The notes beneath the pieces are model-generated. The model ran no database searches and was not told the origin of the DNA. It saw only the letters and a list, made by a program, of their open reading frames with translations. A stretch of DNA of 64,000 nt, taken from Polaribacter sp. (GTDB lineage: Bacteria > Bacteroidota > Bacteroidia > Flavobacteriales > Flavobacteriaceae). Below are positions 25,462 to 60,440 of the stretch, piece by piece. Position 1 is the first letter of the stretch. The number at the start of each line of letters is the position of its first letter. A program made the translations under genes and the position numbers. The DNA is taken from the NCBI RefSeq assembly GCF_051251875.1, contig NZ_JBPOGL010000013.1, positions 14,683-78,682 of the forward strand, read 5' to 3'.

Positions 25462-25476
25462 TTGTGGAGACGCCGA
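25462..25476 (-). repeat. att site: displaced tmRNA-type 3' fragment (left boundary of island A)
   Basis: TTGTGGAGACGCCGA, identical to 57935-57949; minus strand TCGGCGTCTCCACAA = T-stem 3' half + acceptor strand CGTCTCC + discriminator A. Confidence 0.8.
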
Positions 25477-25590
25477 TACCCGAAGTTTAATTTGTTTTGA
25501 ATTTCATTATATCTGTAAATGGTTGTTGATGCTAGTTATATTGCGTTTTTTGTTTAAAATAGTTTAAAATAGTTTAAGTAAGTGTATTAA

Positions 25591-25612
25591 AACGGACACA
25601 AAAACGGACACA
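25591..25612 (+). promoter_or_regulatory. Putative integrase arm-type sites (left arm, island A)
   Basis: AACGGACACA twice, 12 nt apart, just upstream of the integrase -7 box TATCTTTG (25618-25625). Confidence 0.65.
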
Positions 25613-25651
25613 TTTTGTATCTTTGTTTTGAATAAATAAATTTCTTTAAAA

Positions 25652-27106
25652 ATGGCAACCTTACAATTTTTATATAGAAGCAAAAAAGATAAAGGAAACT
25701 TAACGATACGATTTAGACACTCTTCTAATATACATTATAGATATGCAACTAAAATAGTTTCAGAAAAGAAATATTGGTTTACTACAAAAGGAAAGCATAA
25801 GAATTTAAATAACATTACAATTGGTGGTGATAGCTTTGTTAAAAATCATAAAAAAGATTTAGAAGATATACGTGAAAAATTTTTATTGAAATTTACAAAA
25901 GAGTTTAATAATGGTGTAATAATTTCAAAAGAATGGTTTATAGAAACACTCTCTGAAATTATAACAATTACAATAGATAAATCGGAAATAGAAAAAAGGC
26001 AGAAATCTAAAGAAATAAAGGAGATTAATTTATTAAATAAAGAGCAAAACGATTATAAAACTAATTTAGTTACAACGGCAATACAAAGAGTAATTGATAT
26101 CGAGTATTTTGATAAAAAAGATTCTTTAAGGCTGTATAGTCAACTAATGAGTAAGATTGTGGGGTATCAAAAAATAAAGAAGGTAAAGCTGAAAATAAAA
26201 GACATAAACCAAGATTTTATATATGGATTTTATGCTTTTCTAGTTTCTTATTTAGAACATAGTCATGCAACATCAAATAAGCACTGTAAAAGTCTTATTC
26301 ATGCAATACGATATCAAAAGGATACATTTCCAGATATTGTTGAGGTTTCGCACAATATTCACAATATAAAATATAAGAAGCAAACAAAATCAGAAATAAG
26401 GACACAAAAAGATGAGATTGTAATTACTTTGTCTTTTAATGAATTAGATTTAATACATAATACCGATGTACCTGAAAGACTTCTAGATGTTAAGAAAACT
26501 ATTTTGTTTATAAGTGAAGTAGGGTTAAGAGTGTCAGATTTTAATAAATTAACAGACGAAAATGTTAAAGTTAATAACCAAGGAGCTAAATATTGGGGTT
26601 TTTGGAATAGAAAAACAGGTTATGATGTTGTGCTACCAATTAATAAAAGAATATTAAAATATATTGATTGTTATGGTAAACCTAAAATATCATTTAAAGA
26701 AAATGATAATGTAACATTAAACAAGGAAATTAAGGAGATTTGTAAAATAGCAGGAATTGATGAGGTTATTCAAAGTAGAAAATCACTAAGTGTTATTGTG
26801 AATGACAAGAAAACAAGGCGTACAATATCAAACACCTATAAAAAATATGAGGTAATTACAAATCATAGTTTTAGACGTTCATTTGCAACAAATTATATTA
26901 ATATAATAGGAGCTTACAATGTTAGGGCAGTAACGGGTCATAAAAGCGATGAAATGTTGTATAAATACATTAATGAAAGCTCTGTAAATGATGATCAAAT
27001 AACTCAAATGCTGAGGGGCATGAATGAGAATGCTGTAAGATTAGAAGAGGCACAAATAAAACCTCAATTTAATATTTATAAAGACACTATCCTAAAATCT
27101 GTGTAA
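25652..27106 (+). CDS. Tyrosine recombinase/integrase of island A (last 7 codons and stop supplied by IS256)
   Basis: GLRVSD (R), HSFRRSFATN (HxxR), GHKSDEMLYKY (H, Y); Bacteroidota arm-binding-like N-terminus. Confidence 0.92.
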   Translation: MATLQFLYRSKKDKGNLTIRFRHSSNIHYRYATKIVSEKKYWFTTKGKHKNLNNITIGGDSFVKNHKKDLEDIREKFLLKFTKEFNNGVIISKEWFIETLSEIITITIDKSEIEKRQKSKEIKEINLLNKEQNDYKTNLVTTAIQRVIDIEYFDKKDSLRLYSQLMSKIVGYQKIKKVKLKIKDINQDFIYGFYAFLVSYLEHSHATSNKHCKSLIHAIRYQKDTFPDIVEVSHNIHNIKYKKQTKSEIRTQKDEIVITLSFNELDLIHNTDVPERLLDVKKTILFISEVGLRVSDFNKLTDENVKVNNQGAKYWGFWNRKTGYDVVLPINKRILKYIDCYGKPKISFKENDNVTLNKEIKEICKIAGIDEVIQSRKSLSVIVNDKKTRRTISNTYKKYEVITNHSFRRSFATNYINIIGAYNVRAVTGHKSDEMLYKYINESSVNDDQITQMLRGMNENAVRLEEAQIKPQFNIYKDTILKSV

Positions 27107-28422
27107 GTTTAAAAACTCAGGATTAAATTATTTATAGTTTAATCCTGTTTTCAAATATAGCTAAAAATTGGTTTAATATAATTCCCCAATTTCTAATTGG
27201 CATTGTCCATTTTTTTGTGCTTTCTCTTAGTGCTAAATAAACAGATTTCATAACAGCTTCGTCTGTTGGAAAAGAGAGTTTATTTTTGGTGTATTTTCTA
27301 ATTTTTCCATTAAGGTTTTCTATTAAGTTTGTGGTATAAATAATGGTCCTTATTTCAACAGGAAAATCAAAGAAAATAGTAAGTTCGTCCCAGTTGTTTT
27401 CCCAACTTCTAATGGCATAAGAATATTTAGATTCCCATTTAGCTTTAAAGTCTTTTAAGGCAGCTTTTGCAGCTTCTTTTGTAGGAGCTGTATAGATTTG
27501 TTTCATATCTCTAGTAAACTCTTTTTTGTCTTTCCATACCACATAACGACAGGAGTTTCTAATTTGATGAACAACACATATTTGAGTTACAGAGTTTGGG
27601 AAAATGGTTTTTATGGTGTCTGTAAATCCGTTTAAATTATCTGTTGCGGTTATTAATATATCTTGTGTTCCTCTGGCTTTTATGTCTGTTAGAACTGTCA
27701 TCCAAAAGGCTGAGGATTCATTTTTACCTAACCACAAGCCAAGCACTTCCTTTTTACCATCAACTCTAAGTCCAACAGCTATGTAGATGGTTTTATTAAT
27801 GACTTTAGAGTTTTCTCTTACTTTAAAAACAATGCCATCCATCCACACGATTAAATAGGTGGCTTCTAAAGGTCTATTTTTCCAAGCAATAATATCGTTT
27901 GTAATGGTGTCTGTTATTCTTGAAATGGTGGAGGTTGAAACGTTAAAATCGTAGAGTTCGCGTATTTGTTCTTCTATATCACTATTGCTCATTCCTTTTG
28001 CATACAGCGATATAATAACGTTTTCAATGCCTTCTGTTGTGCTTTGTCGCTTCTTTATAATCATTGGGTTAAAAGAACTCTCGCGATCTCTAGGTACTTG
28101 GATTTCTGTCTCTCCTAAAGTTGTTTTTAGCTTCTTTTTTGTATAACCATTACGAAGGTTAGTAGTTTTACTTTTTTGATGCTTATCGTAGTCTAAATGT
28201 GCATCGAGCTCACCTTCTAAAATCTTTTCGATGCCTCGCTTATGGAGTTGTTCTAAAAAGCTAGTGAGTTCTGTTCCGTTTTTAAATTGCTTTAAAAAGT
28301 CTTCGTTTAAAATGTCTTCTGGTTTCATAAATGTGTAAAGTTTAAAGTTAATAAAATAAAAAACTCAGGATTGAATTCAATCCTGAGTTTTTTGAAACTT
28401 ACACACTTTATGGGTTATTGCC
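27083..28422 (-). mobile_element. IS256-family insertion sequence (1340 bp)
   Basis: Imperfect terminal inverted repeats GACACTATCCTAAAATCTGTGTAAGTTT and GGCAATAACCCATAAAGTGTGTAAGTTT, with TGTGTAA at position 18 as in IS256; no 8-9 bp target duplication. Confidence 0.92.
27132..28328 (-). CDS. IS256-family (Mutator) transposase
   Basis: [45 protein letters not shown]. Confidence 0.96.
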
Positions 28423-29555
28423 ATATTATGATAAAGATTATGTATACAAACCCTCATTTTGGTTTTACCTTTCCAAATCCTCAGGTCTAAGAAGAGCAGA
28501 ACCTCTAGTTGTATCTTGGTGTTCAGGTAATCATACTACACTATCTATAGACCAAGGCTTTCTGAGTGCCTTTTCGCTATCTCCTCGTTTATCAGATAAT
28601 GAAATTTTTTGGGATGATTTAAAAAAACCAGTATACAATGTTGTAAAAAACAAACTTTTATCTGAATACAATTCTTCTTTCTTCTTTTTCTACTTCTACG
28701 ATTTTTAAATACTCAGAGAACACCTTAGGATCATATTTAAAATTCATCGCTTTATCAGCTATGAAGGGAAGTAGTGTTAAACGCTGAGGATCTTTAGTAG
28801 CAGTATCAATATTATCAGCAATTTTAGGAAAGTTTTTTGCTAACTCTTTTCCAAGCCCCCTCGTACCAAATCTTATGTTTAACCATTACTTCTTCTCTTT
28901 CTTCACTTGCAAAATCATTTATAAAATCGTCATTAGAAGTATCTACTTGACAAAATAATTTAAATCCATTTCCACTTGGTGATACAAAAGCCATATAGGG
29001 TTTTACATTTTTGGTGCCTTTCCAAACTTTGTTCATCCAATCGATGGTTGTCTTTTCATCTTCAATTTTATCAAAGTCAAAAACAAACCTTCCAGTATGT
29101 TTGAACTCCATTATCTTTTCGTCTCTAGTGTCGGTGTCTAAGGAAATCATAATGGCAGGTAAAAATAATTTGACCAATTTAACATCTCCACCTGCGGTGT
29201 CTAATAATCTCTTTATAGAGCTTGTTGGGTTTGTCATTTCTTCTATAAGTTCTGACTCAGTTATCTGATCAGCAATTAGATCATCATTCTTTCCAAAGGA
29301 CCTCACGCTAGATTACCATTTAAGATGAAACCCAAGGTAGTCTCTAAGGAAATACTTAAGTGAATAACCCAACTTATTGATTAATCTTTTAAAATCTTGA
29401 TGATGATTGGTAATAAAGTCAGAACAATAATTGAGAACAGTTTTGCTTTTGTCTCTTTTACGATAACCTTTGGTTAATAATTCTAGTAAATCTTGTTCTT
29501 CTTTGGGTAAATTTTTATACTGAACTCCTGCTGTTAGGAATCTGTATACCTACTC
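28423..29555 (-). pseudogene. Frameshifted, truncated BT4734/VirE-N-like primase-associated gene relic
   Basis: ORF 28824-29306 has TGRFVFDFD...AFVSPSGNGFK; removing one A at about 28848 continues it as AWKELAKNFPKIADNIDTATKDPQRL; more shifts follow; cut off by the IS at 28422. Confidence 0.65.
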
Positions 29556-29864
29556 ATTTGTTGTGTGTGTTGCAAAATAATAGTAATTCTTACTCATTAA
29601 TTCTATTTAATGCATTAATAAACTTCTTATGTGTACCAGTTGCGCATTCGTATATGTAGTTATATAATAGGATGCGCTAATTGTCAAGTGGTACATTCAA
29701 ATATCTAGTTTAAGGTCTTGGCTTTTTTACTCGCTGTTTGAGCTTTAGATATAAAATCACAAATAAAAAACCATTTTTTTTAGAAAAAAGCAAAATAATT
29801 AAACTATATTTCATTATCATTTAAAATAAAAAAATCTTTTTCAATTGAATATCATCATATATTT

Positions 29865-32800
29865 ATGACTTCTAAAGGTTTCTTAAATTTATTTAAAAAG
29901 AGTCTTGATCTTTTTCAGTCAAAACATGCTGTAATCGACAGATCGGGTTCATTAACCTACTTAGAGGTAGAAAATTTGTCAAACATAATTTGCCACAACC
30001 TATCAACAAATAAAAATACAGCAAATGGTACTATTGTTTTATTTCTGCCAAGGACTTCAGCTACTATCGTTTCAATACTTGGAATATGGAAGGCTGACTG
30101 TATTTACTTACCGATTGATCCAACTTTTCCGCAAGAAAGAATAAATTACATCATTCAAGATTCAAAAGCATCAGCTATCATCTCAACACCTGAATTTTCT
30201 GAAAAACTAGAACATTTAGCTATCGATATACTTCATTTTGATGACCTTGTCGAGGAAAGAAATCAAAACATTTCACCTTTATTTCAAGAGGAGAAGAGTG
30301 CCTATAAAATATACACTTCAGGATCTACTGGGCTACCAAAAGGAGTAAATATTAGTCATGCTTCTTTTTCTAATCTTCTGCAGGCCATGCAAGAGATTCT
30401 AGATCTTCAGGAATCAGATCAATTTTATGCCCTAACCACAATCTCCTTTGATATTTCTCTACTTGAATTGTTTCTACCTCTTACTTTAGGTGCTACCGTA
30501 GTAATAGCGGGGAATTTATCTAGAGATAATCCTCAAATGATGATTGAGGATCTACATACGTTTAATATATCGGCAATGCAGGCGACACCTGCACAATGGC
30601 AACTATTATTGGATGTAGGTTGGTCTGGAAACTCTAAATTGAAAGCAATATCCGGAGGGGAAAACCTTACTACTAAACTTGCTAATAGGCTCTTTACTAA
30701 AGTAGGGAAACTATGGAATATGTATGGCCCAACAGAAACAACAATCTGGTCCACTTATTACATCGTTGATGATGCAATACTTGATTCTAAAAACTCTAAA
30801 CGCTCAATTCCTATTGGATATCCAATACGCAAAACCTCTTTGTATGTTTTGGACGATGCGGGGAATAACGTAAGTGCGGATCAACTAGGAGAGTTATTTA
30901 TTGGTGGAGATGGTGTTGCTATTGGTTACATAAATGATCTTGAGAAAACCGCAGAGAGATTTGTAACAATTACAAGAAGTGGAACAGAACAACGCGTATA
31001 TAAAACAGGTGATATTGTAAAAATACTGCCCAATGGTGCCCTTGAGTTCATTCAACGAAATGACCTTCAGGTTAAGTTAAACGGTCACCGTATTGAATTA
31101 AAAGAAATAGAATCAGTAATTCGATCCTCTAACATCGTTAAAGAGGTTGTTGTTAAACCCATCACACCTTTGGAAGAAACGACCTATTTAACCGCTTTCT
31201 ATACAATTAATCAAGAATCAAAGAGTGCAAAAACACTGGGTATTAATCAGATTCGATCACTGTATGACAATATATACTCCTATAATAAGGCTGATGAACC
31301 AGTTATAGGATGGATCAACAGCTATACAAATCAACCATTTACTGCTGAAGAAATGGAGTCGTTCTACCAAAACACATATCATCGAGTTTCCAATTATATT
31401 AGCGGCGACATTCTTGAAATTGGTTTTGGTGAAGGTCATCTTATGAAAAAAATGATTCCATCATGTAATAATTATACAGGGATTGAGCTTTCTAAAAATA
31501 CATCTGAACATATAAACAAAAACCTTTTTAAGAATTATAAAAACAAAGTGCAATTACTATATGGTGAACCGGTAGAAGTTATTCAAAACCTGGATCAATT
31601 TGACTTTATCCTCATTAATTCAGTTGCTCAATACTTTCCTTCCATAAGCTACTTAAAGGAGTTATTGATTTCACTATGTAATAAAATTGGTGAGGGATTC
31701 ATATTCATTGGAGATGTTAGAAATCCGAGGCTTCAAAAATCATTTTACAGATCCCTTTTATCACAAAGAAATAACGGTACTTCTTCCAGTGATGATGAGG
31801 AAATAATTGAACAGATGTTTCAATCGGAAACCGAACTTTTTATTGACTATTTGGAATTCCAAAACCTATTGAACATAGAAAAGGTTGCAGACATTCGGTT
31901 CTTAACCAAGGATAGTCCATTTGATACTGAAATGGATCTCTTTAGGTATGATGTTTTGATCCATATCTCTTCCAATTCTAAAAAACCATCGCCAGAGCAT
32001 AGCATTGACTACATTGACAGTTATCCTGATCAATTAACTAATAAATTAAACGCTGGAAAACACTCAATTGTAAAGCTTTCAAATGTTCCCGATATTCGAT
32101 TGATCCCTTTTTCAGAAAAGCAACCAGGCTCTTCAATAATCACGTATGGAATTCCAAATTGGAAAGCTATCGCAGATCAATACAATTATAGGTTAGAAAT
32201 TCAGCCATCAAGTACTTCGAACAATAATCTTGACCTTTATTTTTATACACCCTGTATTGAGGCTATAAACCTACCAAGTTCTACTCCTCCGCGAGAGAAT
32301 TTTACCCCACAAACCGATTCGACTAAAAACATTAAGAATGCAGAGATTTTTGAAGAAATTCTTCGTGAAACTCTTCGAGAAAAATTACCTGCATATATGA
32401 TTCCAGAGCGGTATGTTATGTTAGATGAATTTCCTCTGACACACAACTGGAAGATTGATCGAGACCGTTTAACAGTTTCGGATAAAAAGGTAGAGCGTAA
32501 AAATGCTAGTGTAGCTCCAAAAAATGAACGCGAGAAGTTATTGGTCGAAATTTGGAAGGAGGTTCTGGGTATGGATGACCTTGGAATTACAGACAATTTC
32601 TTTTCACTTGGTGGAAGCAGTATTAAGGCATTACTAATCATTGCTAAGGTATATAAACAACATGGATTGACTTTACACGTTCAGGATTTCTTCCAATTCC
32701 CGATCATTGAAAAAATGGTGCAAGCACTTACTCAAGATGCAAAAGAAATTGTACTGGTTGATGAAAGCAGTTATTACCCTGTTTCACCAATGGAAGAGAG

Positions 32801-35800
32801 CATTTGGCTTCTATGCAATGACGCGGATGCAAGTCGCGCTTACAATATCGTTTATATATCCGATTTTTTATCGGAGCCTGACTTTCAATTGGTTGAAAAA
32901 ACGATTCTGTGTCTTATAAATAAACATGAATCTCTACGAACAGCTTATTCATTTTCGGATGAACTCAATGGTGTTCAACAGTATATTTCCCCCACAGACA
33001 ATACTCAATTCAGCCTAAATGTTGACGATAAGTTGCATTCCAATGCTAAGCTTACTCAATTCATCATTGATGAAAAAAACTACTTATTCGATTTAAGTAA
33101 TCCTTCACTTTTCAGGTGCTTCGTCAAAAAGAAGGAAAACGGAAAATGGGTGTTAATTTGGAATATTCATCACATAATTACTGATGGTTGGTCAATGAAT
33201 ATGCTTTTTGATGAGTTTGAAGAGATTTACAAACAGTTAGCTGAACTACGTTACATTCCTGATCATTCTAAAATTCAGAACAAAGACCATTCGATTTGGT
33301 ACAGGAAGCTGCAAGAGTCTGATTCTACAAAGAAGATGCTAAACTATTGGCGTGATCAACTAAGTGATTACGTTCCTTTTGAACTTACTTCTGATCGTCC
33401 ACGAGCAAAACTTAAGACCTATAATGGGGATCAACTTACTGTTCCTTTCACAGCTGATTTAGCCAAAATTCAGACTGATCTTGCCAGAAAAGAAAAAACG
33501 AGTGAATATACAATTGCGCTTTCTGCTTTTTTCATACTACTCAAACGATACACACAACAATCAGATTTACTGGTTGGGACACCAATAACAACGCGTACTC
33601 ATAGCCAATTGCAATCCATCGCAGGAATGCTGCTCAATACTGTGCCGATTCGTTCAAAGCTATCTGAAGAAAAAACATTCAATGAGGTACTACTCTCAAC
33701 TGAAAGGTCCGTTCAAAATGCTAGAGAAAATGGAGTTCTTGCCTTTAACAAAGTAGTTTCTGAGCTTGTAGATTCACCAGATTTAGCAAGAAATCCTTTG
33801 TTTGATATAATGTTCGTCTGGGAAGAATATTTTTCGGAGGAAAAAACCGAACGAAATGTAATTGCCAAACAGAAACTCACTACAAGTCATTCAAGTTTTG
33901 TGAAATTTGACCTTACGATTCTTATTCAAAAGGAAGAAGGTATTCCTAAGCTAACTCTTGAGTATAACACCGATTTGTTTGACAAATGGAGAATACAACA
34001 AATAGCCCAACACTTTTTCGCGATACTCCAAGCTTCAATTAAACAGGCTGATGCTCCGATTAAAAACATAAATGTACCTGTTCGACCATTACCTGTTCCC
34101 GCACAAGAAACACAACATCCATTGTCAACGTTGATGCATAGATTTGAACAACAAGTAGTTTCAAATCCAAATAATACGGCTGTAATTTTTTGTAACAACG
34201 CACTGACCTACGAAACACTTAATCGTAAAGCAAACCAACTAGCGAATCATTTAATTAGCTCATATCAAATTAAACCCGGAGATGTCATTGCTTGCTTTAT
34301 GGATCGCTCTGACAATTATATAGTAACTCTTTTAGGGATTCTTAAAACAGGAGCATGCTATATTCCATTAGCGTCTGATCTTCCAACAGAAAGAATTCAA
34401 CACATTCTTAACGAATCTGAGACTTCTGTTGTAATTACCTCTTCTGAAATGCACTTCCCTGTTTCAGACGTGGCTGTTCTTCTACTTGATGGTGAGTCTC
34501 TCAATTCGTCTGTTGAAAATCCTAAGATTCAACAAGTACCTGAGTCATTGGCTTATATAATTTATACTTCTGGTACAAGTGGGCAACCAAAGGGGGTTAT
34601 GATTTCTCATTCTGCCATTGTCAGCTATTGCAATCACCTTACTGAACAACATCCAATAAGTAAAAAAGACTGCATGGGAATGATCACCTCCCCTACTTTT
34701 GACTTATCTTACACAGCTCTTTGGCCTGCACTATTGACGGGTGCTTCAGTATGCGTTTTACCCGAAATTAAATCTCTAAACCATGAAGAGATTTCGAATT
34801 TCTTTAGGTCAATGCCCATCAATATTCTGAAATTAACACCAACGATTCTTCAATCTTTTCTGGACTTAAACATCGAGTTTCATCCAAATCTCCGTAGGTT
34901 GTTTGTTGGAGGTGAAGTTCTCCCCATGAGATTGGTTGAACAATTTCAAAAGAGATTTAATTCGGTTGAAATAGTCAATCATTACGGACCAACAGAAACG
35001 ACTGTTGGAGTTATCACTCATGCGTTAAAACCGGGTGAAATATGTCCGACTGCAACAGTACCTATAGGTAAACCTTTACCGGGTATCGAAGTCTTCGTCT
35101 TTGATGCTGAACTACATCATCGACCGATTGGATTTTCAGGTGAATTGTACATCGCTGGTCAACAACTTTCCAAGGGATATTTATGTCAGCCTGAAGTAAC
35201 AGCCAAAAGCTTTATTAAGCATCCAAAGAGTGGGGCGGTACTTTATAAAACGGGAGACATTGTACAACAAATGCCTGATGGAACGATTCTATATATAGGA
35301 AGAAAAGATCATCAGGTAAAGGTCAATGGAATTCGGGTTGAGATTGAGGAAATCATACATCAAATTGGTAGTATTTCAGAAATTAAAAATGTAGCGATTT
35401 CCTTTGTTGATAATTCAATCAATGCATATATAGTTACAACCAGGGACGTTGAATTATCTGAGCTAAGGAATCAACTTGCACTGAAGCTACCTGAATACAT
35501 GATTCCAACTCATTTTTATAGTGTAGATTCAATTCCTGTAACTCCAAATGGCAAAACAGATTTTGAAAAACTCAAAGAGAATCATAAACAAGCCGTAGAG
35601 TTTCAAAATATTGAGCGGGGTGCTTTACACGAGAAAATTTTACAATTATTCAAGGAAGTTCTGAACCGCGATGATATCCAATATTCAGATAGCTTTTTTA
35701 ATTCAGGAGGACACAGTTTAAAAGCCATGCAATTGTGCTTTCTCATTCAATCTGAGTGTAATTTATTCCTTGAACTCAATTCAATTTTCAGGTACCCAAC

Positions 35801-40163: not shown

Positions 40164-41320
40164 AGATTGTTCACCTTGTAAATTGGAAAATAAGAATCAA
40201 TTGTGCCCTTTTTATAATCCTGGTTTAAAGTCAATATCTCGTCCCATTCATAAACATGATTCGTATCAATAACAGGCATCCAATCATTAGAAATGGCGTA
40301 CTCCATTGCTTCTATAGCATCGCTATATCTAGCATAATGGGTATGTATATGTTGATGCCTTTGAATACTTTCGATTGCTCTAAAATAGGACAGCTTCATA
40401 CCTTCTTTCCAACCTGAAGTCGTTATCACGCCTTGTCTGGAAAGTGCTTTTAATGTTGCTCTATACACAGGCAATCCGATATTATCAATGAAGATTGCAA
40501 CTTGACGGTTATTTGTTGCCGCATTAATGTTATTGAGAAAGATTTTCTCGCTCTTAATATAGCATTCCCGATAATTTGAATCCCTTTCATATTTATCAGG
40601 ATTAAAGTTCAAATCTGCAAATTCATTTCGATCTAGCGAATTGATTCCCAAATCAGCCAAATTTGTAAATCGCTTTTCTTTAGAGGTAATCATTAAAGTC
40701 TTAAAACCTTTTTCTTTGGCAAGTAATAACTCTGCGAATCCTACTCCACCTCCCCAAGAGGCTACCGTCATTTCAGATAAAGACACATCTGTCATTTGTG
40801 ACCTCCAGCACTTGTAACTGATTTTCCAATTTGACCAGGCCGTTATATATCTCAGTGAAAAGGCAGCCCATTGTTTCAATGAAAAATTACTTCGTGAAGG
40901 TATTCTAATTAAAGTATTCGAAGGAAGTACAGTTCTTTTTGCGAGTATACCCATTGTTCCCTTAGCATCATATCCAAGAATTTTTTTCGGAAACCCATAT
41001 TCGTCTGCTACTGCATTACAGAACACCAATGCATAATCTCCTTGTTTAAGATGGGATTGTGGGCTACCTGTTTTGAGGATTCTCACAACCCCAGCATTCC
41101 CAAGAACAATTTCCTTTTCTTTTCTCTGTAAACATATATCTACTGGGTCTCTCATAATTGCATGATGCATATTACCTTCCCAACATCCATAAATTGGTTC
41201 AACTAATATCGTCTTTATTGATAAGGTGGGAAGTTCTATTTTCTTTAAAATTAATTCACCTGGTACTCTATGTATTTTACCTTGTTCTAAAACCCATGCA
41301 TCTGTTAATTCTCTACTCAT
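40160..41320 (-). CDS. MDR-family NAD(P)H oxidoreductase, divergent crotonyl-CoA carboxylase/reductase-like
   Basis: WGGGVG Rossmann motif; LGYD and HTHYARYSDAIEA align by eye with CCR WGFE and GSHFANYREAWEA. Confidence 0.65.
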   Translation of the reverse strand: MSRELTDAWVLEQGKIHRVPGELILKKIELPTLSIKTILVEPIYGCWEGNMHHAIMRDPVDICLQRKEKEIVLGNAGVVRILKTGSPQSHLKQGDYALVFCNAVADEYGFPKKILGYDAKGTMGILAKRTVLPSNTLIRIPSRSNFSLKQWAAFSLRYITAWSNWKISYKCWRSQMTDVSLSEMTVASWGGGVGFAELLLAKEKGFKTLMITSKEKRFTNLADLGINSLDRNEFADLNFNPDKYERDSNYRECYIKSEKIFLNNINAATNNRQVAIFIDNIGLPVYRATLKALSRQGVITTSGWKEGMKLSYFRAIESIQRHQHIHTHYARYSDAIEAMEYAISNDWMPVIDTNHVYEWDEILTLNQDYKKGTIDSYFPIYKVNNL

Positions 41321-41330
41321 ACCTAATTGT

Positions 41331-42074: not shown

Positions 42075-42077
42075 TTT

Positions 42078-42872: not shown

Positions 42873-42874
42873 AT

Positions 42875-50470: not shown

Positions 50471-50508
50471 AGTTTTTTTGATATATTCATTCTTTACCCA
50501 TTCTGCTG

Positions 50509-51714
50509 TTATAAATTATTTTGAAGTGCTGAATAGACCATATTTTGAAATAAATCTAGATTAAATTCATAATAATCCGTTTTAACATCATAAGTTCGAA
50601 TAGAACTTAAGAATACTCCTACTAACTCATTTTTAGGATCCCCCCAAATACCAACACCAAATGAACCTTCATGGTGAAATGCATTTATAGGTATTAAAGA
50701 ACCATTTATGTATTTCCATCTTTCTTCACTTTGAACCGCCCAACCATAGCCTCTTGAAGCTTGGTGAATCCATAAACCATCTCTATTTTTTGCCTTTATA
50801 TTAGGGATTTGATTTTGAGTCATAATATCTATGCTCGATCTACTCAATATTCTTTTGTCCCCATAACATCCACCATTTAAAAACATTTGACAAAACTTAG
50901 CCATATCTATTGAATTAGATATTAATCCTCCTGATGCATGGGGAATAGTCAATCTCTTAAAGTTATTAGGGTCTCTTCCTGTACCCTCATAAATTTTGGG
51001 ATTTGCTGTAACTCTAGCATCTTCCGCTTCTTGTTTTAGACCAAACCATGAACTCTTCATCTCTAATGGCGTAAAAATAAACTCTTGCGAAAATTCATTT
51101 AAACTTTTTGAGCTTAGCCTTCTAACTATTTCTGAAACTAGTATATAATTAAACCCGCAATACATCATTATCCGACCAGGTTTGCACCTCGGCTTGAGTT
51201 GACTATAGCACAACTCTAACATTGAGTGAATATAAGGATGTTGATTCAGTTCACAATCAACTTGATCTCTAGGAATATCATAAGGCAGTTTTCCAATTAA
51301 TTTAAACCAATCATTTGCATTATAACCAGAGGTATGAGTTAATAAATTCCCTACCATGACCCCAGATGAAAGATTATTTTTCAATTCAGGAATATAGTCG
51401 GTAACAGGTCTAGTCAAACTCAAAATTCCATCCTCAACTAATATCATTGCTAAGGTAGCAATGACAGGTTTTGAGCAAGATGATAAACTAAATACAGCAT
51501 CTGGAGTTAATATTGAAGTTGGAATATCATATTTCAATCTACCAAAAGAATAATTAGAAACAATTACTCCTTTCCTTGCTATTAAATAAGTTAAAGCCGA
51601 AGTATTATTGTTTTCTACCCATTCTTCAGCTCTTTTTTTAATTAATTCAAGTCTCTCGTCGATGAATCCTACATCTTCGTTTTTTCCCAATACTAAAGTG
51701 GAATTGTTTATCAT
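50509..51714 (-). CDS. Serine hydrolase, beta-lactamase/PBP family, cytoplasmic
   Basis: SxxK (SCSK), LLTHTSG, YCG at the YxN position, HEG; no signal peptide or TM segment evident. Confidence 0.88.
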   Translation of the reverse strand: MINNSTLVLGKNEDVGFIDERLELIKKRAEEWVENNNTSALTYLIARKGVIVSNYSFGRLKYDIPTSILTPDAVFSLSSCSKPVIATLAMILVEDGILSLTRPVTDYIPELKNNLSSGVMVGNLLTHTSGYNANDWFKLIGKLPYDIPRDQVDCELNQHPYIHSMLELCYSQLKPRCKPGRIMMYCGFNYILVSEIVRRLSSKSLNEFSQEFIFTPLEMKSSWFGLKQEAEDARVTANPKIYEGTGRDPNNFKRLTIPHASGGLISNSIDMAKFCQMFLNGGCYGDKRILSRSSIDIMTQNQIPNIKAKNRDGLWIHQASRGYGWAVQSEERWKYINGSLIPINAFHHEGSFGVGIWGDPKNELVGVFLSSIRTYDVKTDYYEFNLDLFQNMVYSALQNNL

Positions 51715-52451
51715 TTCATATTTTTTTTGTAAGAATTAACAATAAATGAATCCCATTCAGGCTTTGGATTATCATAATGAACCATTAGATGTACTCTTCT
51801 TTCTTCAGAGATATTTATAACACTGTGTTCAATACTAATATCGAACTTAAAAGCTTTTCCTTCCTCAAAAGGGATTATACCTTTATCCTTAAGAAGGAAA
51901 TACGCTCCCTTTGGATTCGTTATCGCTATATTTACAGATTTAGGTAAGAAACTTTTCTGAGTATCTGTATGTGGAAGTATATAACCACCTGGTTCCAAAA
52001 CCATTAGTCTTATTCTATGGAAAAATTCAACTTTAAAGGAATTCTTAATTGCATTCGTTGTGATAGGACAGAGATCTGATAATTCAGTCCATTTATATGG
52101 AGTCTCAGAATCACTTTTATAACCATAATGCCTTGGAGATCTAGTTTTATTAGTTGAAAGACCATGTAAACATAAACTCCACCAACCATTATGCATTTCT
52201 TCTCCTCTATGGGTTGAACTGTTTTCATAAAAGTCAAGAACATTTAAGATCTCAGTTCTTATTTTATTTATTGGTAATCTTAAATCTATTTCTAAATAAG
52301 GTATTAAACTATTAGTACTTATCCAATCTCTGGTAATAATATTTTGTTTAGGGAATTTTTGTTTTTGGATACAAAGCGAATGTTTCTTCCAAAATTTTGT
52401 AATTTCATCTGGAAAGGGTAAGTTACTAATTATGGAATAAATATTTTCCAT
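51711..52451 (-). CDS. Aspartyl/asparaginyl beta-hydroxylase-family 2OG-Fe(II) oxygenase
   Basis: RIRLMVLEPGGYILPHTD, HSVIN, RVHLMVH. Confidence 0.85.
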   Translation of the reverse strand: MENIYSIISNLPFPDEITKFWKKHSLCIQKQKFPKQNIITRDWISTNSLIPYLEIDLRLPINKIRTEILNVLDFYENSSTHRGEEMHNGWWSLCLHGLSTNKTRSPRHYGYKSDSETPYKWTELSDLCPITTNAIKNSFKVEFFHRIRLMVLEPGGYILPHTDTQKSFLPKSVNIAITNPKGAYFLLKDKGIIPFEEGKAFKFDISIEHSVINISEERRVHLMVHYDNPKPEWDSFIVNSYKKNMK

Positions 52452-52458
52452 TGTTATA

Positions 52459-53190
52459 TTATTGTTTATTAAAGATAAATGAAAAACTCTTATTCAGAAT
52501 TTCTAAATTTGTTGCTGATGTGTTACAAATTATTGATATTTCCCTATTTTTATTTAATAGAAATATTCTAATTTTTTTTTCTTTTTTTGGAAAACAAATT
52601 GAAATACAATATTTTCTATTAATAACAAATACTAAATAATCTAAACACTCAAGGCTAAAGTTATTTATTCCTTTATAAAATTCAATTTTTGATTGATTTA
52701 AAATTTTAAAGCCAAAACTTGAAGGCTCAACATAAAGTCCTTTACCAATATATTTTAAAAAAGCCTCTTTAATAGTCCAATTTATAATTAATTCTCTATC
52801 ATTATTAATAAAACCAGTTTCTGCATCACATAAAAATGCATTTTTTAAAGGCATGTATCGATTATTAGTGTCAATTATTTTCTCAATATCAACTCCAATT
52901 CTATTTTTAGAAACCCCAAACACACTTGCTCCCTTAGATCGAGATGCGCTAAAATCATAAAAGCTAGAAACTTTTTTTTTACCATTTTTATCGGTAACAT
53001 ATTTAATGTTTTTTGCTAAAACTCCTAATTTCTTTTCTAAAACGCTTCGTTTAATAATTTGATTGGCAGCATAATTTATCTGATCGTCAATAAAAAAAAA
53101 ATTTAAATACCTGTTTATTTCTGTTTTACTTAATGTATTCAAATCTAAATCATTCGCCTGAGAATCAATACAGTAAATATAAATATCCAT
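52459..53190 (-). CDS. Sfp-type 4'-phosphopantetheinyl transferase
   Basis: FSASRS, IGVDIE, WTIKEAFLKYIGKGL. Confidence 0.92.
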   Translation of the reverse strand: MDIYIYCIDSQANDLDLNTLSKTEINRYLNFFFIDDQINYAANQIIKRSVLEKKLGVLAKNIKYVTDKNGKKKVSSFYDFSASRSKGASVFGVSKNRIGVDIEKIIDTNNRYMPLKNAFLCDAETGFINNDRELIINWTIKEAFLKYIGKGLYVEPSSFGFKILNQSKIEFYKGINNFSLECLDYLVFVINRKYCISICFPKKEKKIRIFLLNKNREISIICNTSATNLEILNKSFSFIFNKQ

Positions 53191-53338
53191 GCTCTGAAAA
53201 TAAAACTATTTAACTAATTTGGAATTACAATTTTTTCTAAAATTACCACATTATTTTTTAAAAAAAAAACTACACTTATTAACTCTTGATTTACAACACT
53301 AAATAAAACTTTGAAACCCTTAGATATAAATAAAAATT

Positions 53339-53698
53339 ATGTCTAAATTAAGTAAAAAACAGTTTTTAGAAAATCACAGTTCATTTCCAAATTTCTACAA
53401 GAAATTACTAAAACAAGGTGATGTAGAATGGTCATTACTGATAAAACATACTCAAGATTATTATACAGCAGATAGTGGATCAGTTCCTGGTATGATTTAT
53501 TACAAGGATACTGTTGCTTTTGCAAAAAAGCATCATTTATTAATATTACAAATCCTAGAAGAATTTGAATGCGATTGTGGAACACTAGAAAACAAACCAA
53601 GTCCACAAGATGAAACACAATATTTTAATTGGCTATCCTGGTTCGCTTGGGAGTCTATGATGAGTGAAGTGATTTCTTTTGTAGAAAATAATAATTAA
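53339..53698 (+). CDS. Hypothetical mobile-element protein (119 aa)
   Basis: Clean ORF with its own terminator; GMIYYKDT and LSWFAWE motifs resemble small phage or element proteins. Confidence 0.7.
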   Translation: MSKLSKKQFLENHSSFPNFYKKLLKQGDVEWSLLIKHTQDYYTADSGSVPGMIYYKDTVAFAKKHHLLILQILEEFECDCGTLENKPSPQDETQYFNWLSWFAWESMMSEVISFVENNN

Positions 53699-53699
53699 A

Positions 53700-53730
53700 A
53701 AAAATATGCAACGTTATGTTGCATATTTTT
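53700..53730 (+). terminator. Intrinsic terminator
   Basis: AAAAATATGCAAC / GTTGCATATTTTT 13-bp stem right after the stop. Confidence 0.75.
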
Positions 53731-53797
53731 CTCTGTTTCTCTTTGGTTCCTCTAATAGACTTTCTACTAACCTTTTTGAATCATATTAATACATATA

Positions 53798-54500
53798 GTT
53801 ATAAGGGGTGGTAAACGTGGTAATGCTGGTAAACCTCAACATTAGCAAGAGTTTTGATAGGTTTAAAAGTGGTAAGCGAGTGGTAAGCGTGGTAAGGAGA
53901 AATAAAAAACCACCTATTTAGAATCATTAATTAAATAGAGGGTTTTGTTTAAAACTTAGAGACCCACCCCTCACGAAGTGCTTTCTTCCAATTTACCATA
54001 TCTGTAGTCCTAGTGATAGTAGGGTGTGCATAGAGGAGGGGTTTTGTAAAATAGGCTTAAGTACTATTTTTAGGGTTCATCTAGCAGAGGTTATAAGGGG
54101 GGGGCTGGTAAACCTCAACATTAGTAGGTGTTATAGCTGTTCTTTTACTGGTAATGATTTGGGAATGTGGTAAACAATTTAAAAACCACCTATTTAGAAT
54201 TATTAACTAAATAGATGGTTCTGATTGAAATATAGAGACCCACCCCTCACAAAGTACTTTCTTCTAATTTACTACATCTGCAGTCCTAGTGATAGTTGGG
54301 GTACATAGGGGGTAAAATGTATTTAAGTACTATTTTTAGGGGTCATTTAGTTGAGGTTATAAGGGGTGGTAAACGTGGTAATGCTGGTAAACCTCAGTAT
54401 CGATAAGGGTTAAGAGTGGTAAACTACTGGTAAAGGTGGTAAGGACTAATGAAAAACCACCTACTCAATCTTACAATTGAATAGGTGGCTAGTCTTAAAT
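53798..54500. repeat. About 2.5 tandem copies of a 270-290 bp non-coding unit rich in TGGTAA
   Basis: Units start GTTATAAGGGG at 53798, 54090 and 54356; shared blocks CTGGTAAACCTCA and AAAAACCACCTA (all three), GAGACCCACCCCTCAC, AGTCCTAGTGATAGT and AAGTACTATTTTTAGGG (first two). Confidence 0.88.
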
Positions 54501-54508
54501 AGAGTTTT

Positions 54509-55843
54509 TTAGTTAAACATTTTCTTATAATTACCCCTACTATCAACTCTTTTAAATAATTCCTTTTTATTTAAAAACCTAGCTAAAGAGCCACCGTTAA
54601 CTCCATGCTTTTTAAATAATTCAGCTTGATCACCTTTTTTAAATTCCATTGGTAATTCTTTAAAGAGTTCTTGTTTGTCTTCAGAAAAGTTATCTAGTGG
54701 ATTTGTGGAAGACAGCTTATTGTATACACGTAAAGCATTGGTTCTAAAATACTCTACCAATATTATGGCATTTTCTAAGCTTTTGTCTGATAGCTTATCA
54801 CTAAAGATATCAATCGATGTTTGCTCTATCATCTCTAAAATTAAAGCAAGCCTCCAAACATATGTTTCTAACTTTGATTGTATTAATGTTTCTAGATCGT
54901 CATGATGGCACTCTTTAACTTTTCTACTTTGCCATTCTTTGTAAATTTCTATTTGGCTTTCTGTTGTTTTTAAAGTTTTATTAGTTGTGCCAAATAAATC
55001 TTGGATCAGCTTACTGTAGCTTTGATAGTGGCTTTCATCTATTTGTTTTCCAGTAAATAGTTTTGGTTCTAGATCTTTAGGATATACAAATAAGAAACGA
55101 GCTAAAAATCCATCATCCTCTCTATTGTTAGAAGCCATGTCTTTTAGAACTTTTGGTTGCATACCACCAAGAATGTTTACATTAGGGTTTTCAACACGAA
55201 TAGGCCCCTTAGATACCCTGTCAACAGAAATGGCATCCCCATTAAAGAACTCTAAATACATTTGCTGATCGCCTCCTTTTTTATATTTGTCAAAACTCTT
55301 GATCCAGCCTAGCAACTCGTCTCTAAAAATTAAAACACCTTTTTTATTATGCTGAAGGGTTTCTGATAGTTTTTCTGGAGTAAAGTCACTAAGAATGTTT
55401 TTGTTATAGACAGGTTTCTCTTCATTTTTCTTCTCAGAATTAAAATGTTTCTGCATATCAGATTGGAACCTAGTAAAACTTTTTTTATCCATTTCTGCTA
55501 TGGGTTGTTTAGCAAATTTTAGTGGATGTGTCTTACCGTCTCCAGATCTTCCAATAATATTTAACCATAAAATTGGAGGATTGTGATAGGATCCGTTATG
55601 CAACCTTACTGAACTGCCAATGGCAGTTGCACAAGCAGATAGTATTCCAGCACTTAAATATTCTGGATTATAGCCAACAGTTTCCTCAGCATTTATTATG
55701 AGGTTTTGAACGCTTTTTGGAAATATTTCTGTTGGGAAAGAGTGAATTTTAGTTGATAAGTTGTTTTTGGTTACTCTTGGAGTTCCATTGTAACTTGTTA
55801 TCTGGGTTTTTTTAGCTTTAGATATGGAATTGTTCATAATCAA
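54509..55843 (-). CDS. DUF3987/YfjI-family P-loop protein (element replication helicase-like)
   Basis: FPTEIFP, LWLNIIGRSGDGKT, DFTPEKL, RDELLGW, GGMQP, GFLARFLF. Confidence 0.85.
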   Translation of the reverse strand: MIMNNSISKAKKTQITSYNGTPRVTKNNLSTKIHSFPTEIFPKSVQNLIINAEETVGYNPEYLSAGILSACATAIGSSVRLHNGSYHNPPILWLNIIGRSGDGKTHPLKFAKQPIAEMDKKSFTRFQSDMQKHFNSEKKNEEKPVYNKNILSDFTPEKLSETLQHNKKGVLIFRDELLGWIKSFDKYKKGGDQQMYLEFFNGDAISVDRVSKGPIRVENPNVNILGGMQPKVLKDMASNNREDDGFLARFLFVYPKDLEPKLFTGKQIDESHYQSYSKLIQDLFGTTNKTLKTTESQIEIYKEWQSRKVKECHHDDLETLIQSKLETYVWRLALILEMIEQTSIDIFSDKLSDKSLENAIILVEYFRTNALRVYNKLSSTNPLDNFSEDKQELFKELPMEFKKGDQAELFKKHGVNGGSLARFLNKKELFKRVDSRGNYKKMFN

Positions 55844-56122
55844 TTATTTTTTTATTTTTTTAATTTCAGCTTCTACCTCTGATCTTTTGTATAGAACTCT
55901 ACCAGAAATTTGGTATTTCGTAAGAGTCCCATCCTTAGTAATGTTATGAACACTAGAAGTTTTCATACGTATCATTTCTGCAACTTCTTCTCTTTTCAGA
56001 TATTTATTTGGTTCTTTGGGTTGAAAATGTTGTTTTAATTCTTCGAATTTCTTATCGATGTAATTAAAGATTGGAGAGTTGTGTTCTTCTGTGGTTATAC
56101 CCACTAATTGTACCTGTTTCAT
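55844..56122 (-). CDS. Excisionase-like HTH_17 protein (start corrected to ATG 56122)
   Basis: YLKREEVAEMIRMKTSSVHN...GRVLYKRSEVE; TAATTTTG -7 box at 56172-56179. Confidence 0.85.
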   Translation of the reverse strand: MKQVQLVGITTEEHNSPIFNYIDKKFEELKQHFQPKEPNKYLKREEVAEMIRMKTSSVHNITKDGTLTKYQISGRVLYKRSEVEAEIKKIKK

Positions 56123-56222
56123 TTTTCTAATTTTAAATGATTTATTGATTATCATCGTTAATAATCTTCGGCAAAATTACAAGGTTTTTGAGGCTATCAA
56201 AGGTTTTTTTAGACGAATCGAT

Positions 56223-56244
56223 GGTACTACCGGGGGTACTACCG
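56223..56244. promoter_or_regulatory. Direct repeat pair upstream of the excisionase promoter
   Basis: GGTACTACCG twice, 12 nt apart. Confidence 0.55.
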
Positions 56245-56245
56245 T

Positions 56246-57337
56246 CTATTTTTTCTCTTTTTCTCTTTTGCTTTTTTCGCTTCTTTTTTTTATAATCTCA
56301 TCGTATAAGTTTGATTTTAATTGATCAAGGAAGAGGGGCTCATTGCCATGAATACGTTCTTTTATATGTTCATATAATTTATATGGTTCTTTTATTTCTA
56401 TGTCAAAGAAATTAGCAATTTTATCAGTCAACTCTCCAATTTCACCAATAATCCTTTTGTATAGAAATAGTGCTATTATTAGCTCAATTAACTCTGTTGG
56501 ATTACCCTGCCATTTCAATTTGATATTATCAAATTCTAATTGTTTTGGTTCTTCTTGTTTTGGCTCTTCTTGTTTTAATTCTTCTTGTTTAATTTTATTA
56601 ATCTTATCGCATAAGTTTGATTTTAATTGATCAAGAAATAAGGTCTCACTGTCGATAATACGATTTTTTATATGTTCATATAGCTTATGTGGGGCTCTTA
56701 TTTCTAGGTCAAAGAAATCAGTAACCTTATTAGTCAGCTCTCCAATTTTACCAGTAATACTTTTGTTTAGAAATAGTGCTCTTATTAGTTCAATTAATTC
56801 TGTTGGATTGCCCTGCCATTTTAATTTGATGTTATCAGATTCTAATGGTTTTGATTCTTCTTGTTTGGAGTTTTTTTGCTTCCCCTTTTTAATTTGTTTA
56901 ATTTGATCTGTTAAAAAAGAATTATATTCTAAAAGGGTAGCTAATTCAATTGTACTTTTTACAAAATCTTCCTCTCGTAGTTCTTTGTAGCTTTTAATTT
57001 GAAACAAATTAATAAATAGTTCATCCAAAGACTCAAAGTATTTTATAAAAAAATACTCTTTAATAGCTTTTCTTCTTAAAACAGGATTTAAAGGTTTTTG
57101 ATTTAGGTATATTCTATATTCGTCTATTTCTCTTGTATTTTTATTGGGTATTTCCTTTAGTAAATCCCTTAATTTCGATTTTTCGTCTTTTATATATTTT
57201 AATGTTTCTTTTTTATTAGTAATTGTCTCTATATCTAATCTATATTCCATTATTTTTATTTCTAATGAATTATCGATATCATTTAATACATTCGAAATAA
57301 AATTATTCATGTATTCAAAGTCAATTATTTGTTTCAT
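56246..57337 (-). CDS. Protein with two tandem RteC-like domains
   Basis: KWQGNPTELIELI.AL...FFD.EI...Y..I..R...LFLDQLK.NL repeated with a 102-aa period; matches the RteC consensus as recalled. Confidence 0.75.
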   Translation of the reverse strand: MKQIIDFEYMNNFISNVLNDIDNSLEIKIMEYRLDIETITNKKETLKYIKDEKSKLRDLLKEIPNKNTREIDEYRIYLNQKPLNPVLRRKAIKEYFFIKYFESLDELFINLFQIKSYKELREEDFVKSTIELATLLEYNSFLTDQIKQIKKGKQKNSKQEESKPLESDNIKLKWQGNPTELIELIRALFLNKSITGKIGELTNKVTDFFDLEIRAPHKLYEHIKNRIIDSETLFLDQLKSNLCDKINKIKQEELKQEEPKQEEPKQLEFDNIKLKWQGNPTELIELIIALFLYKRIIGEIGELTDKIANFFDIEIKEPYKLYEHIKERIHGNEPLFLDQLKSNLYDEIIKKRSEKSKREKEKK

Positions 57338-57849
57338 TTTTAAATCCGTTTAGTTATAATTTAATATAAAAAAATCCTTTATCTCACTAAATAACATTTT
57401 TTTTAGTTTAAAAACATTTACATGAGCAACATAAATGCAAATTAAGAAAGAATTTTGAAATCTTAAGAGAAATAAAAATAAACAATTATATAGCTATCAA
57501 AGGCAATAGCTCAAAAGGATTAATTTTTACTATAGTTTTATTAATTTTGAGTAGAAACGTTTTTAATTACTTTTATTATTGGGTTTTCTTTAGCTTGTTG
57601 CTTTTCAAAATTTCTTTTTGCATGAAATAAACCTGTCTGTTCTTTTGTACGTTTTATATTTGTTTCGTCATTATTGTTTATGTCTGCTCTCAACTGATTC
57701 TCATTAAGAATGACTTGTGATAGACGTAATTAAAGAAGTATCTATTTTTCCATAGTAATTTGTTGCAAATGATCATCTAAAAGGCCTTAATTCGTATTTT
57801 GGATATAAACTTAAGGAAGTGGTGTCTGTTTGTTTGCTTAAAAGCAAAG

Positions 57850-57870
57850 TGGACACAAATTCGGACACAA
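57850..57870 (+). promoter_or_regulatory. Putative integrase arm-type sites (right arm, island A)
   Basis: GGACACAA twice, 12 nt apart; same core and spacing as 25591-25612. Confidence 0.65.
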
Positions 57871-57892
57871 AAATAGTTTTTTCTGGATATAT

Positions 57893-57931
57893 AAAAACCT
57901 AATCAATTAAATTTCAATTGATTAGGTTTTT
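57893..57931 (-). terminator. Hairpin/terminator following the att copy on the minus strand
   Basis: AAAAACCTAATCAATT / AATTGATTAGGTTTTT 16-bp stem. Confidence 0.75.
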
Positions 57932-57934
57932 TAA

Positions 57935-57950
57935 TTGTGGAGACGCCGAG
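57935..57950 (-). repeat. att site: tmRNA-type 3' fragment at the island A/B junction
   Basis: Minus strand CTCGGCGTCTCCACAA; 15 nt identical to 25462-25476. Confidence 0.8.
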
Positions 57951-58067: not shown

Positions 58068-58088
58068 CAGCACCTAAAACAGCACCTA
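58068..58088 (+). promoter_or_regulatory. Putative arm-type sites of island B
   Basis: CAGCACCTA twice, 12 nt apart, just before the integrase ATG. Confidence 0.6.
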
Positions 58089-60369: not shown

Positions 60370-60440
60370 AATTGATAATCAATTGATAAATTGATTTCAA
60401 TATCAATCCTAAGTTTGAGCCAAATTAAAAACTCAAAATT

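Follow-up and report, generated by a model that had tools for sequence, protein, structure and literature searches.

A probable tandem array of two tyrosine-integrase islands at the 3′ end of the tmRNA gene of a Polaribacter species, with an NRPS-PKS cluster as cargo

Tandem arrays of genomic islands at tRNA and tmRNA genes (tDNAs), in which each island comes with one tDNA fragment and one integrase, are a recognised class (Hudson, Lau & Williams 2015, Islander/TIGER; PMC4383910). Among the targets, the tmRNA gene, ssrA, is the most enriched (PMC4383910), and 'Traffic at the tmRNA gene' is the title of an earlier paper (Williams 2003, cited in PMC4383910). In Dehalococcoides, for instance, tandem ssrA islands are bounded by a 20-bp repeat and served by a serine recombinase (PMC3146451). 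Integrative mobilizable elements (IMEs) accrete at tDNA 3′ ends as well and, in Bacteroidota, NBU1 and NBU2 occupy the 3′ ends of tRNA-Leu and tRNA-Ser genes (PMC5704250). The usual route of accretion places the newest element next to the tDNA (PMC5704250, PMC4383910). Finally, integrase-mediated integration and excision have been shown experimentally for the 10K island of Riemerella anatipestifer (PMC6764341). Here we describe a 64,000-nucleotide stretch of Polaribacter sp. (the window: positions 14683-78682 of contig C5, in a draft genome of 3.92 Mb and 67 contigs), which very probably covers the distal two-thirds of an array in which two tyrosine-integrase islands, A and B, lie in tandem in the ssrA 3′ end. 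Coordinates are those of the window unless a contig is named.

The array is marked by the 15-mer TTGTGGAGACGCCGA, found on the forward strand at 25462-25476 and 57935-57949. These are exact copies, the only two in the window and, as the initial annotation could not see, the only two in the whole genome. The window has no further site at up to two mismatches, nor any degenerate core copy at up to three that would mark an older array boundary. By chance, 0.02 repeats of a 15-mer would be expected, and 0 of 100 shuffled sequences gave two matches. A 13-mer core within the repeat, GTGGAGACGCCGA, has three genomic copies: the two in the window (25464-25476 in copy 1 and 57937-57949 in copy 2) and one at the ssrA 3′ end (C45:160). 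A short common core is a feature of NBU1 and NBU2.

The genome has a single tmRNA gene (ARAGORN, whole genome), on the minus strand of contig C45 (158-551; ARAGORN c[160..551], tag GEDNYALAA), which matches Rfam RF00023 with 150.9 bits over the full model (1-374); no tRNA or tmRNA gene was found in the window. The gene starts with GGGGACG and ends with …TTCGATTCTCGGCGTCTCCAC, and its last 13 nucleotides (nt), reverse-complemented, are the core. In the tmRNA, the core covers the final 4 nt of the T-stem and all 7 nt of the acceptor strand, then A73 and a C, with GGGGACG pairing to CGUCUCC through a G3-U70 pair. From the window letters only, the repeat had been read on the minus strand as TCGG-CGTCTCC-A-C, part of a T-stem followed by an acceptor strand fitting GGGGACG with G3-U70 and A73, and this reading is what the tmRNA gene bears out. 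It had further been expected that the ssrA 3′ end would hold the repeat in full; it holds 13 nt of it, or 14 for copy 2, and not 15. Both window copies read CAC-AA where ssrA reads CAC-TT, two extra bases common to the copies alone, and copy 2 gains its fourteenth match from one extra base on the opposite side, so that the block common to all three sites is 13 bp. The fragments in the window have the same relative orientation as ssrA, which is on another contig. Island DNA begins directly past the 3′ end of ssrA, and the gene is nevertheless complete against RF00023. The island sequence therefore restores its target gene.

Each copy has a strong hairpin on its left and an integrase gene on its right, as had been noticed from the start, and that description proved correct throughout. 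The hairpin of copy 1 (approximately 25428-25460, minus strand; -16.5 kcal/mol, z -3.55, with 0 of 200 shuffles as stable) is downstream of the att copy in the tmRNA sense and outside island A. That of copy 2 (approximately 57893-57931, minus strand; -18.8 kcal/mol, z -5.41) is part of the right end of island A and has a homologue after the intact ssrA of a complete relative, G002. On the minus strand a U run follows each hairpin, giving the shape of an intrinsic terminator just downstream of a tmRNA-type 3′ end. Position and conservation suggest that the hairpin may be a replacement ssrA terminator brought by the island. On the other side, intA (25652..27106, plus strand) starts 175 nt from copy 1 and encodes a tyrosine integrase of 484 amino acids (aa; Pfam Phage_integrase, 36.7 bits, above the gathering score) with the motifs GLRVSD, HSFRRS, GHKS and LYKY. 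Similarly, intB (58101..59354, plus strand) starts 151 nt from copy 2 and encodes a tyrosine integrase of 417 aa, above the gathering score of the same family. The two proteins are 23 % identical, with their R, HxxR, H and Y motifs aligned. There is one integrase per fragment, IntA with copy 1 and IntB with copy 2. No solved structure is related to IntA by sequence, and no NCBIfam family was found for IntA or for the RteC-like protein and DUF3987 of island A.

These sites delimit the islands. Island A is the 32.5 kb between 25477 and 57934. Its distal att site (attL, 25462..25476, minus strand) is a displaced copy of the tmRNA 3′ end, while the middle site (57935..57949, minus strand) is a chimeric attI joining the right end of island A to the left end of island B; it is spanned by one 22.5-kb contig in four runs. 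Island B begins at 57950 and extends past the right edge of the window. Just inside both ends of each island lie paired short repeats, in the same orientation and 12 nt apart. Beside intA, GGACACA occurs at 25594 and 25606 (25594..25612, plus strand), the first copy on this integrase side being separated from the core by 117 nt, with intA starting 40 nt downstream of the pair; a second GGACACA pair (57851 and 57863; 57851..57869, plus strand), again with 12-nt spacing, is inside the right end of island A. For island B, CAGCACCT occurs at 58068 and 58080 (58068..58087, plus strand), 12 nt apart and 118 nt from the core. The island-side flank of ssrA (C45 78-159, 82 nt) has the repeat motif seen upstream of intB, as a CAACACCT/CAGCACCT pair at C45 97/109 (97-116) with 12-nt spacing, 44 nt from the gene. 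On the ssrA-proximal side, the layout is always repeat pair, terminator hairpin and core. The distance from core to first repeat is thus nearly equal in the two islands (117 and 118 nt), despite the low identity of their integrases. From their position and conservation, the repeat pairs are putative arm-type binding sites for IntA and IntB.

The boundaries of island A were examined in relatives, namely 24 sampled congeners, including the complete genome G002, and L043, a Polaribacter metagenome-assembled genome (MAG). When the distal ends of our genome, G002 and L043 are aligned, identity extends over GTGGAGACGCCGATACCCGAA, and the sequences left of the core are unrelated. The three genomes share the order core, TACCCGAA, GGACACA repeats and IntA, with IntA homologues of 80 % identity in G002 and 82 % in L043, neither interrupted by stops. 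The repeats on this side are kept in G002, where the second copy is GGTCACA, and in L043 the core and three GGACACA repeats precede the integrase. Because three-genome homology starts at the core, the left boundary of island A is exactly the core. In G002, whose tmRNA is 93 % identical to ours, a 69-kb element lies between an intact ssrA and a second copy of the 13-mer. From ssrA it has genes for an RteC-like protein (38 %), HTH_17 (72 %), DUF3987 (83 %) and DUF7222 (77 %), and after 69 kb, at the distal end, a BT4734-like gene, the IntA homologue and the 13-mer. Its right end has the same genes, repeats and hairpin as island A, including the GGACACA pair, and its cargo comprises a GH2 glycosidase, sulfatases and an esterase, with no biosynthetic cluster. 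Comparison at the sequence level thus shows elements of the island A type as units in other genomes, in one case (G002) immediately beside an intact ssrA; the proposal that island A is a discrete unit held up on both counts, the homology edge at the core and the bounded element of G002.

Taken as a mechanism, these features suggest that IntA and IntB share one 13-bp recombination core, TCGGCGTCTCCAC, which runs from the final four T-stem bases through the 3′ acceptor strand and A73 to the C. Each integrase gene is placed at the island end far from ssrA. Integration would swap the ssrA 3′ end for an identical island-borne copy and a new terminator hairpin, and the displaced 13-mer would stay at the end away from ssrA. 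Island A probably entered ssrA first, in a state like that of G002. Insertion of island B into the regenerated end of the gene probably came next and pushed A outward, which would have created the chimeric middle site at 57935, with the repeats and hairpin of A on its left and the repeats of B on its right. Each integrase would bind its own 12-nt-spaced pair inside both ends, GGACACA for A and CAGCACCT for B. Both the order of insertion and the arm binding are what we infer from this layout. Since neither island has lost a repeat pair of its own, A and B should each be capable of excision independently of the other.

The junction between island B and ssrA falls in an assembly gap. It had been predicted that an intact ssrA lies to the right of the window; the gene, sought with ARAGORN and Rfam RF00023 as had been advised, does lie outside the window and in the predicted orientation, on the minus strand of C45, and its placement to the right is something we infer across an unassembled join. 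The physical link appears probable because an ssrA core is required at the right end of island B and the gene itself has the only copy left, and because the 82 nt beside ssrA carry the repeat motif of IntB. In the same way, ssrA and the window copies presumably share a replicon. The insertion sequence (IS) at the gap has the inverted repeat AACGTGAGTTCGA…TCGAACTCACGTT and makes target duplications of about 4 bp that are AT-rich. The same IS ends are found on 6 (C5-type) and 9 (C45-type) contig ends at 10-40x single-copy depth. This multi-copy IS, seen at no fewer than 15 contig ends (at least 15), is the main source of breaks in the assembly, from which its interior is absent. Continuity of an open reading frame (ORF) across an IS break was found for C9-C18 only. 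Of two metagenome scans, one sought a junction free of the IS and the other the right end of island B; each gave 0 matches. All of runs X1-X4 and X21 carry the IS.

Several observations weigh against the tandem array or against its present mobility. Contig C5 stops in one end of an IS (its last 145 nt, 91738-91882) and C45 begins in the opposite end of the same IS (its first 77 nt), and the ATTA flank at the C5 end is common to three partners (C45, C18 and C19). Between the last ORF of island B and this IS (C5 91278-91545) there are fragments of other tDNAs, for which a two-island model has no explanation. One of them is the 3′ 52 nt of tRNA-Leu(TAG) at 100 % identity (C5 91494-91545), preceded by its own repeat pair, GTGTTACCTA/GTGCTACCTA with 11-nt spacing, and a hairpin. 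In the same patch there are a 78-nt stretch that matches tRNA-Arg(TCT) at its 3′ end and in the flank beyond it (82 % identity) and a weak, tRNA-Ser(TGA)-like piece of 25 nt. No empty site with the same outer flank was found in the 24 congeners. A strict empty-site comparison is not available, because G002, the closest complete relative, holds the 69-kb island at the site, with an outer flank that is syntenic with our contig C67 and not with C5. Contigs from five runs of one study cover the junctions, and neither an excised circle nor a repaired site was found among them, which is weak evidence as contigs drop rare variants. Finally, the backbone of island A is interrupted by an IS256-family transposase gene (27132..28328, minus strand; Transposase_mut 1.2e-108, NF033543 418.7 bits) and contains a truncated BT4734-like, primase-type gene (28824..29306, minus strand), and no relaxase was found among its ORFs of at least 100 aa.

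The 15-mer is short and precedes an integrase gene at both of its sites, which would suit a chance repeat or a promoter or operator shared by two paralogous integrase genes. Such an origin is extremely improbable. Identity between the integrases is only 23 %, nothing else is shared upstream of their genes, and in relatives the same core is present at both island ends; the explanation was rejected on the chance expectation of 0.02, the 13/13 identity with the tmRNA 3′ end and the homology among genomes, whose edge is exactly at the core. It is a different matter whether a real array might be a fixed relic, so that island A no longer excises or moves and the 15-bp repeats are integration scars. 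The IS256 insertion, the reduction of the BT4734-like protein to 160 aa from the 569 aa of G002, the missing relaxase, the lack of excised-form contigs in the five runs and a left flank that resembles a decayed older island would all fit this account. Nevertheless, intA has its full length and its catalytic motifs, and its homologues at 80-82 % identity are uninterrupted. In addition, the 15-mers are identical, both repeat pairs and the HTH_17 and RteC-like genes are intact, and excision needs neither the primase nor the relaxase. We thus regard a fixed relic as possible but somewhat doubtful.

The tDNA patch bears on another account, in which island B (the right part of C5) was detached from ssrA by an IS-mediated rearrangement or by recombination between ssrA and tRNA-Leu islands. 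C5 91432-91545 looks like a complete island end for tRNA-Leu, with repeat pair, hairpin and the 52 nt of tRNA-Leu(TAG). In addition, C56 (113527-130457) has a 16.8-kb island beside an intact tRNA-Leu(TAG) gene, with an IntB paralogue (54 %) at its distal end, the 16-nt core TTGTACAGGCGGAGAG at both ends and two GACACCC repeats with a hairpin beside the tRNA gene; the IS, for its part, has about 6-9 copies, and three contig ends share ATTA. By contrast, the left end of island B is an ssrA core, so its right end must be one, and the only remaining copy is that of ssrA. Moreover, the CAACACCT/CAGCACCT pair in the 82 nt on the ssrA side has the 12-nt spacing and the motif found upstream of intB, whereas the repeats on the tRNA-Leu side differ in both respects. 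Detachment of island B is therefore judged unlikely, and a tandem array in which B adjoins ssrA is preferred. The patch itself could represent either fossil att regions from earlier module exchanges or, less probably, a rearranged array.

If the tandem array is as proposed, the products of excision can be specified. Island A would excise by recombination of 25462 with 57935, leaving a circle with the junction …TTTTTTAATTGTGGAGACGCCGATACCCGAAG…, that is, the right end of the island followed by TTGTGGAGACGCCGA and TACCCGAAG; the repaired site would consist of the left-flank hairpin, the core and GTATTGTATT. Island B would excise by recombination of 57935 with ssrA, which would restore a G002-like configuration. 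Each excision might be helped by the island's own HTH_17 or excisionase-type protein. Judged from the intact ends and integrase, island A may still excise today, and its transfer, if any, would depend on other elements, because it has no relaxase and its backbone is partly damaged.

The cargo of island A is an NRPS-PKS (nonribosomal peptide synthetase-polyketide synthase) cluster of about 23 kb (29865..53190). Its main genes encode an NRPS at 29865-37190 (plus strand), a further NRPS at 37179-40163 (minus strand) and a PKS-NRPS at 42875-50470 (minus strand), accompanied by genes for ADH-like, methyltransferase, TauD, beta-lactamase-fold and Asp/Asn hydroxylase proteins and a phosphopantetheinyl transferase (PPTase). 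The two NRPS genes are convergent and overlap by 12 nt (37179-37190), and both end in a condensation-type domain. The GC content of the cluster is 33-38 %, against 26-30 % at the island ends. The cluster was most likely acquired horizontally, on a site-specific island, since no orthologue of the one island A NRPS that was searched was found in the 24 other Polaribacter species.

On the ssrA-proximal side, the backbone of island A (53339..57337) comprises genes for DUF7222 (53339-53698, plus strand), DUF3987 (54509-55843, minus strand), HTH_17 (55844-56155, minus strand) and an RteC-like protein (56246-57337, minus strand). The last of these has an internal tandem duplication (56288-56866, period 306 nt, 1.9 copies, 85 % match), and its product is 363 aa long, against 258 aa for the G002 homologue. 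Island A has a site-specific recombinase with its own att sites, as an IME does, and lacks the relaxase of its own that defines that class.

Island B, in contrast, is an integrative mobilizable element carrying defence genes, because it has a relaxase and a NikA-like protein and no transfer apparatus among its ORFs. Its backbone in the window (59362..64000, all on the plus strand) begins with an ORF without assigned function (59362-60369), followed by genes for an excisionase-type helix-turn-helix (HTH) protein (60441-60722; TIGR01764, above cut-off), a VapE-like protein (60735-61967), a Zn-ribbon/Toprim primase (62051-62908), the NikA-like protein (63004-63303) and a MobA/VirD2 relaxase (from 63300 onward), which runs out of the window. 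Beyond the window (C5 81817-91274) there are a defence block and one ORF without assigned function. The block (C5 81817-90563) encodes an HTH control protein, a type IIG restriction-modification (R-M) enzyme, a type II methyltransferase, GajA and GajB, with PADLOC scores of 1178, 666, 914 and 804 bits for the R-M enzyme, methyltransferase, GajA and GajB, respectively; the GajA and GajB (Gabija) matches are near full length. Conjugation genes (tra or type IV secretion) were found neither in island A nor in the sequenced 19 kb of island B, and Pfam detected no prophage genes (capsid, terminase or tail) in either island.

Homologues of IntB (49-55 %) occur at the distal end of ssrA-core-bounded islands in G007 (24.7 kb) and G003 (18.7 kb), and in decayed form at the ssrA island of G011. 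The G003 island is related to island B in its primase (55 %), NikA-like protein (40 %) and relaxase (37 %). Beyond integrase and HTH, comparison of the island B backbone with G007, G011 and C56 gave only a weak 28 % match in G007 to the type IIG R-M enzyme. The islands of G003, G007, G011 and C56 were also tried as guides to the position of the island B right end, and are too divergent for that purpose.

The same target is occupied in diverse ways across the genus. Different islands are found at ssrA in G002, G003, G007 and G011, and other genes in G010 and G012; the layout of repeat pair and hairpin directly downstream of ssrA, each with its own motif, is seen in G002, G003, G006, G007 and G011. 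In G019, a 510-aa open frame on contig C24, serine-recombinase-like in its N-terminal sequence only, reaches into the ssrA 3′ end, and its sequence suggests that a different class of ssrA-targeting element exists in the genus. Thus, ssrA is a busy insertion site in Polaribacter, where at least five sampled genomes have islands bounded by the 13-mer, whose cargo extends from polysaccharide use to defence by Gabija and R-M.

The left flank of the array appears to have a history of its own. A truncated, excisionase-type HTH_17 ORF (25194..25388, minus strand; Pfam profile positions 16-50 of 51, E 1.7e-4, 22.2 bits, below the 27-bit cut-off) is probably a remnant of an older, decayed island outside island A. 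Its neighbours are of accessory type, a Fic gene (21453-22571) and an AAA/DUF4143 gene (23189-24307). The latter is flanked by a direct repeat of 252 nt (22870-23121 and 24306-24557, 88 %), both copies of which contain microsatellite-like runs of a 7-nt unit (GAATTAC); the arrangement could be a small composite unit, or one bounded by miniature inverted-repeat transposable elements (MITEs), within the decayed flank. Further left, an AraC-aldehyde dehydrogenase-MFS-LutABC block (14506-21281) has a paralogue at C67 38392-47556, with 73 % amino acid identity in LutB. G002 has only AraC, aldehyde dehydrogenase (Aldh) and MFS, syntenic with C67, and the window's own block may have been acquired. 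In addition, runs X3 and X4 have lower-depth contigs in which the 30-nt left-flank hairpin (25429-25458) lies beside a tRNA-Leu 3′ end, and others in which a different sequence is found downstream of an identical ssrA 3′ end. These samples probably contain a second related strain or species with other islands.

Exact and testable boundaries are now set for the 32.5-kb unit that holds the complete NRPS-PKS cluster, which could be captured or moved whole by means of intA, the 13-bp core and the flanking repeats. On the IntA backbone, the cargo is polysaccharide degradation in one Polaribacter species and the 23-kb NRPS-PKS cluster in another. A more far-reaching and rather speculative idea, which we consider improbable, is that the IntA-type element is a cargo-swapping platform at ssrA, in which case the biosynthetic cluster as a whole would excise as a unit and could pass between species, and that the stacked tRNA-Arg-like, tRNA-Leu and ssrA ends at the ssrA-proximal end of island B record a lineage that switches targets through exchange of integrase/att modules.

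With regard to known systems, the locus resembles the Islander class (PMC4383910): the tDNA is intact and restored, the displaced 3′ fragments are in direct orientation to it, and each island has a single fragment and a single tyrosine integrase. It differs in that the identity is 13 bp at the extreme 3′ end, the integrase is distal to the tDNA, the host is a marine member of the Flavobacteriaceae and the array is split by an assembly gap. Like the Dehalococcoides ssrA islands (PMC3146451), it has several tandem islands downstream of a single-copy ssrA, a distal integration module and variable cargo, and the elements are thought to be mobilizable and not conjugative. There, by contrast, the recombinase is a serine enzyme (DsiB) and insertion is in the T-loop, whereas here there are tyrosine integrases and an acceptor-strand core. 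With NBU1 and NBU2 (PMC5704250), the locus shares a tyrosine integrase at a tDNA 3′ end, a relaxase without mating apparatus (island B), the RteC-like and HTH_17 proteins typical of Bacteroidota elements (island A) and tandem accretion with decayed elements. Nevertheless, the target here is ssrA and island A has no relaxase. Only the RteC-like regulator recalls CTnDOT; the conjugation set of CTnDOT-like integrative conjugative elements (ICEs) was found neither in island A nor in the sequenced part of island B. The 10K island of Riemerella anatipestifer (PMC6764341) is likewise a Flavobacteriales island at a tRNA gene, but it is a single 10-kb island with a 53-bp repeat at tRNA-Arg, and its integrase adjoins the tRNA gene. 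Set beside these systems, the locus is an ordinary tandem array of tmRNA-targeted islands, to which it adds a host group, a 13-bp core and a family with exchangeable cargo; it brings no new principle to mobile-element biology, and its value is as a handle on a mobile NRPS-PKS cluster.

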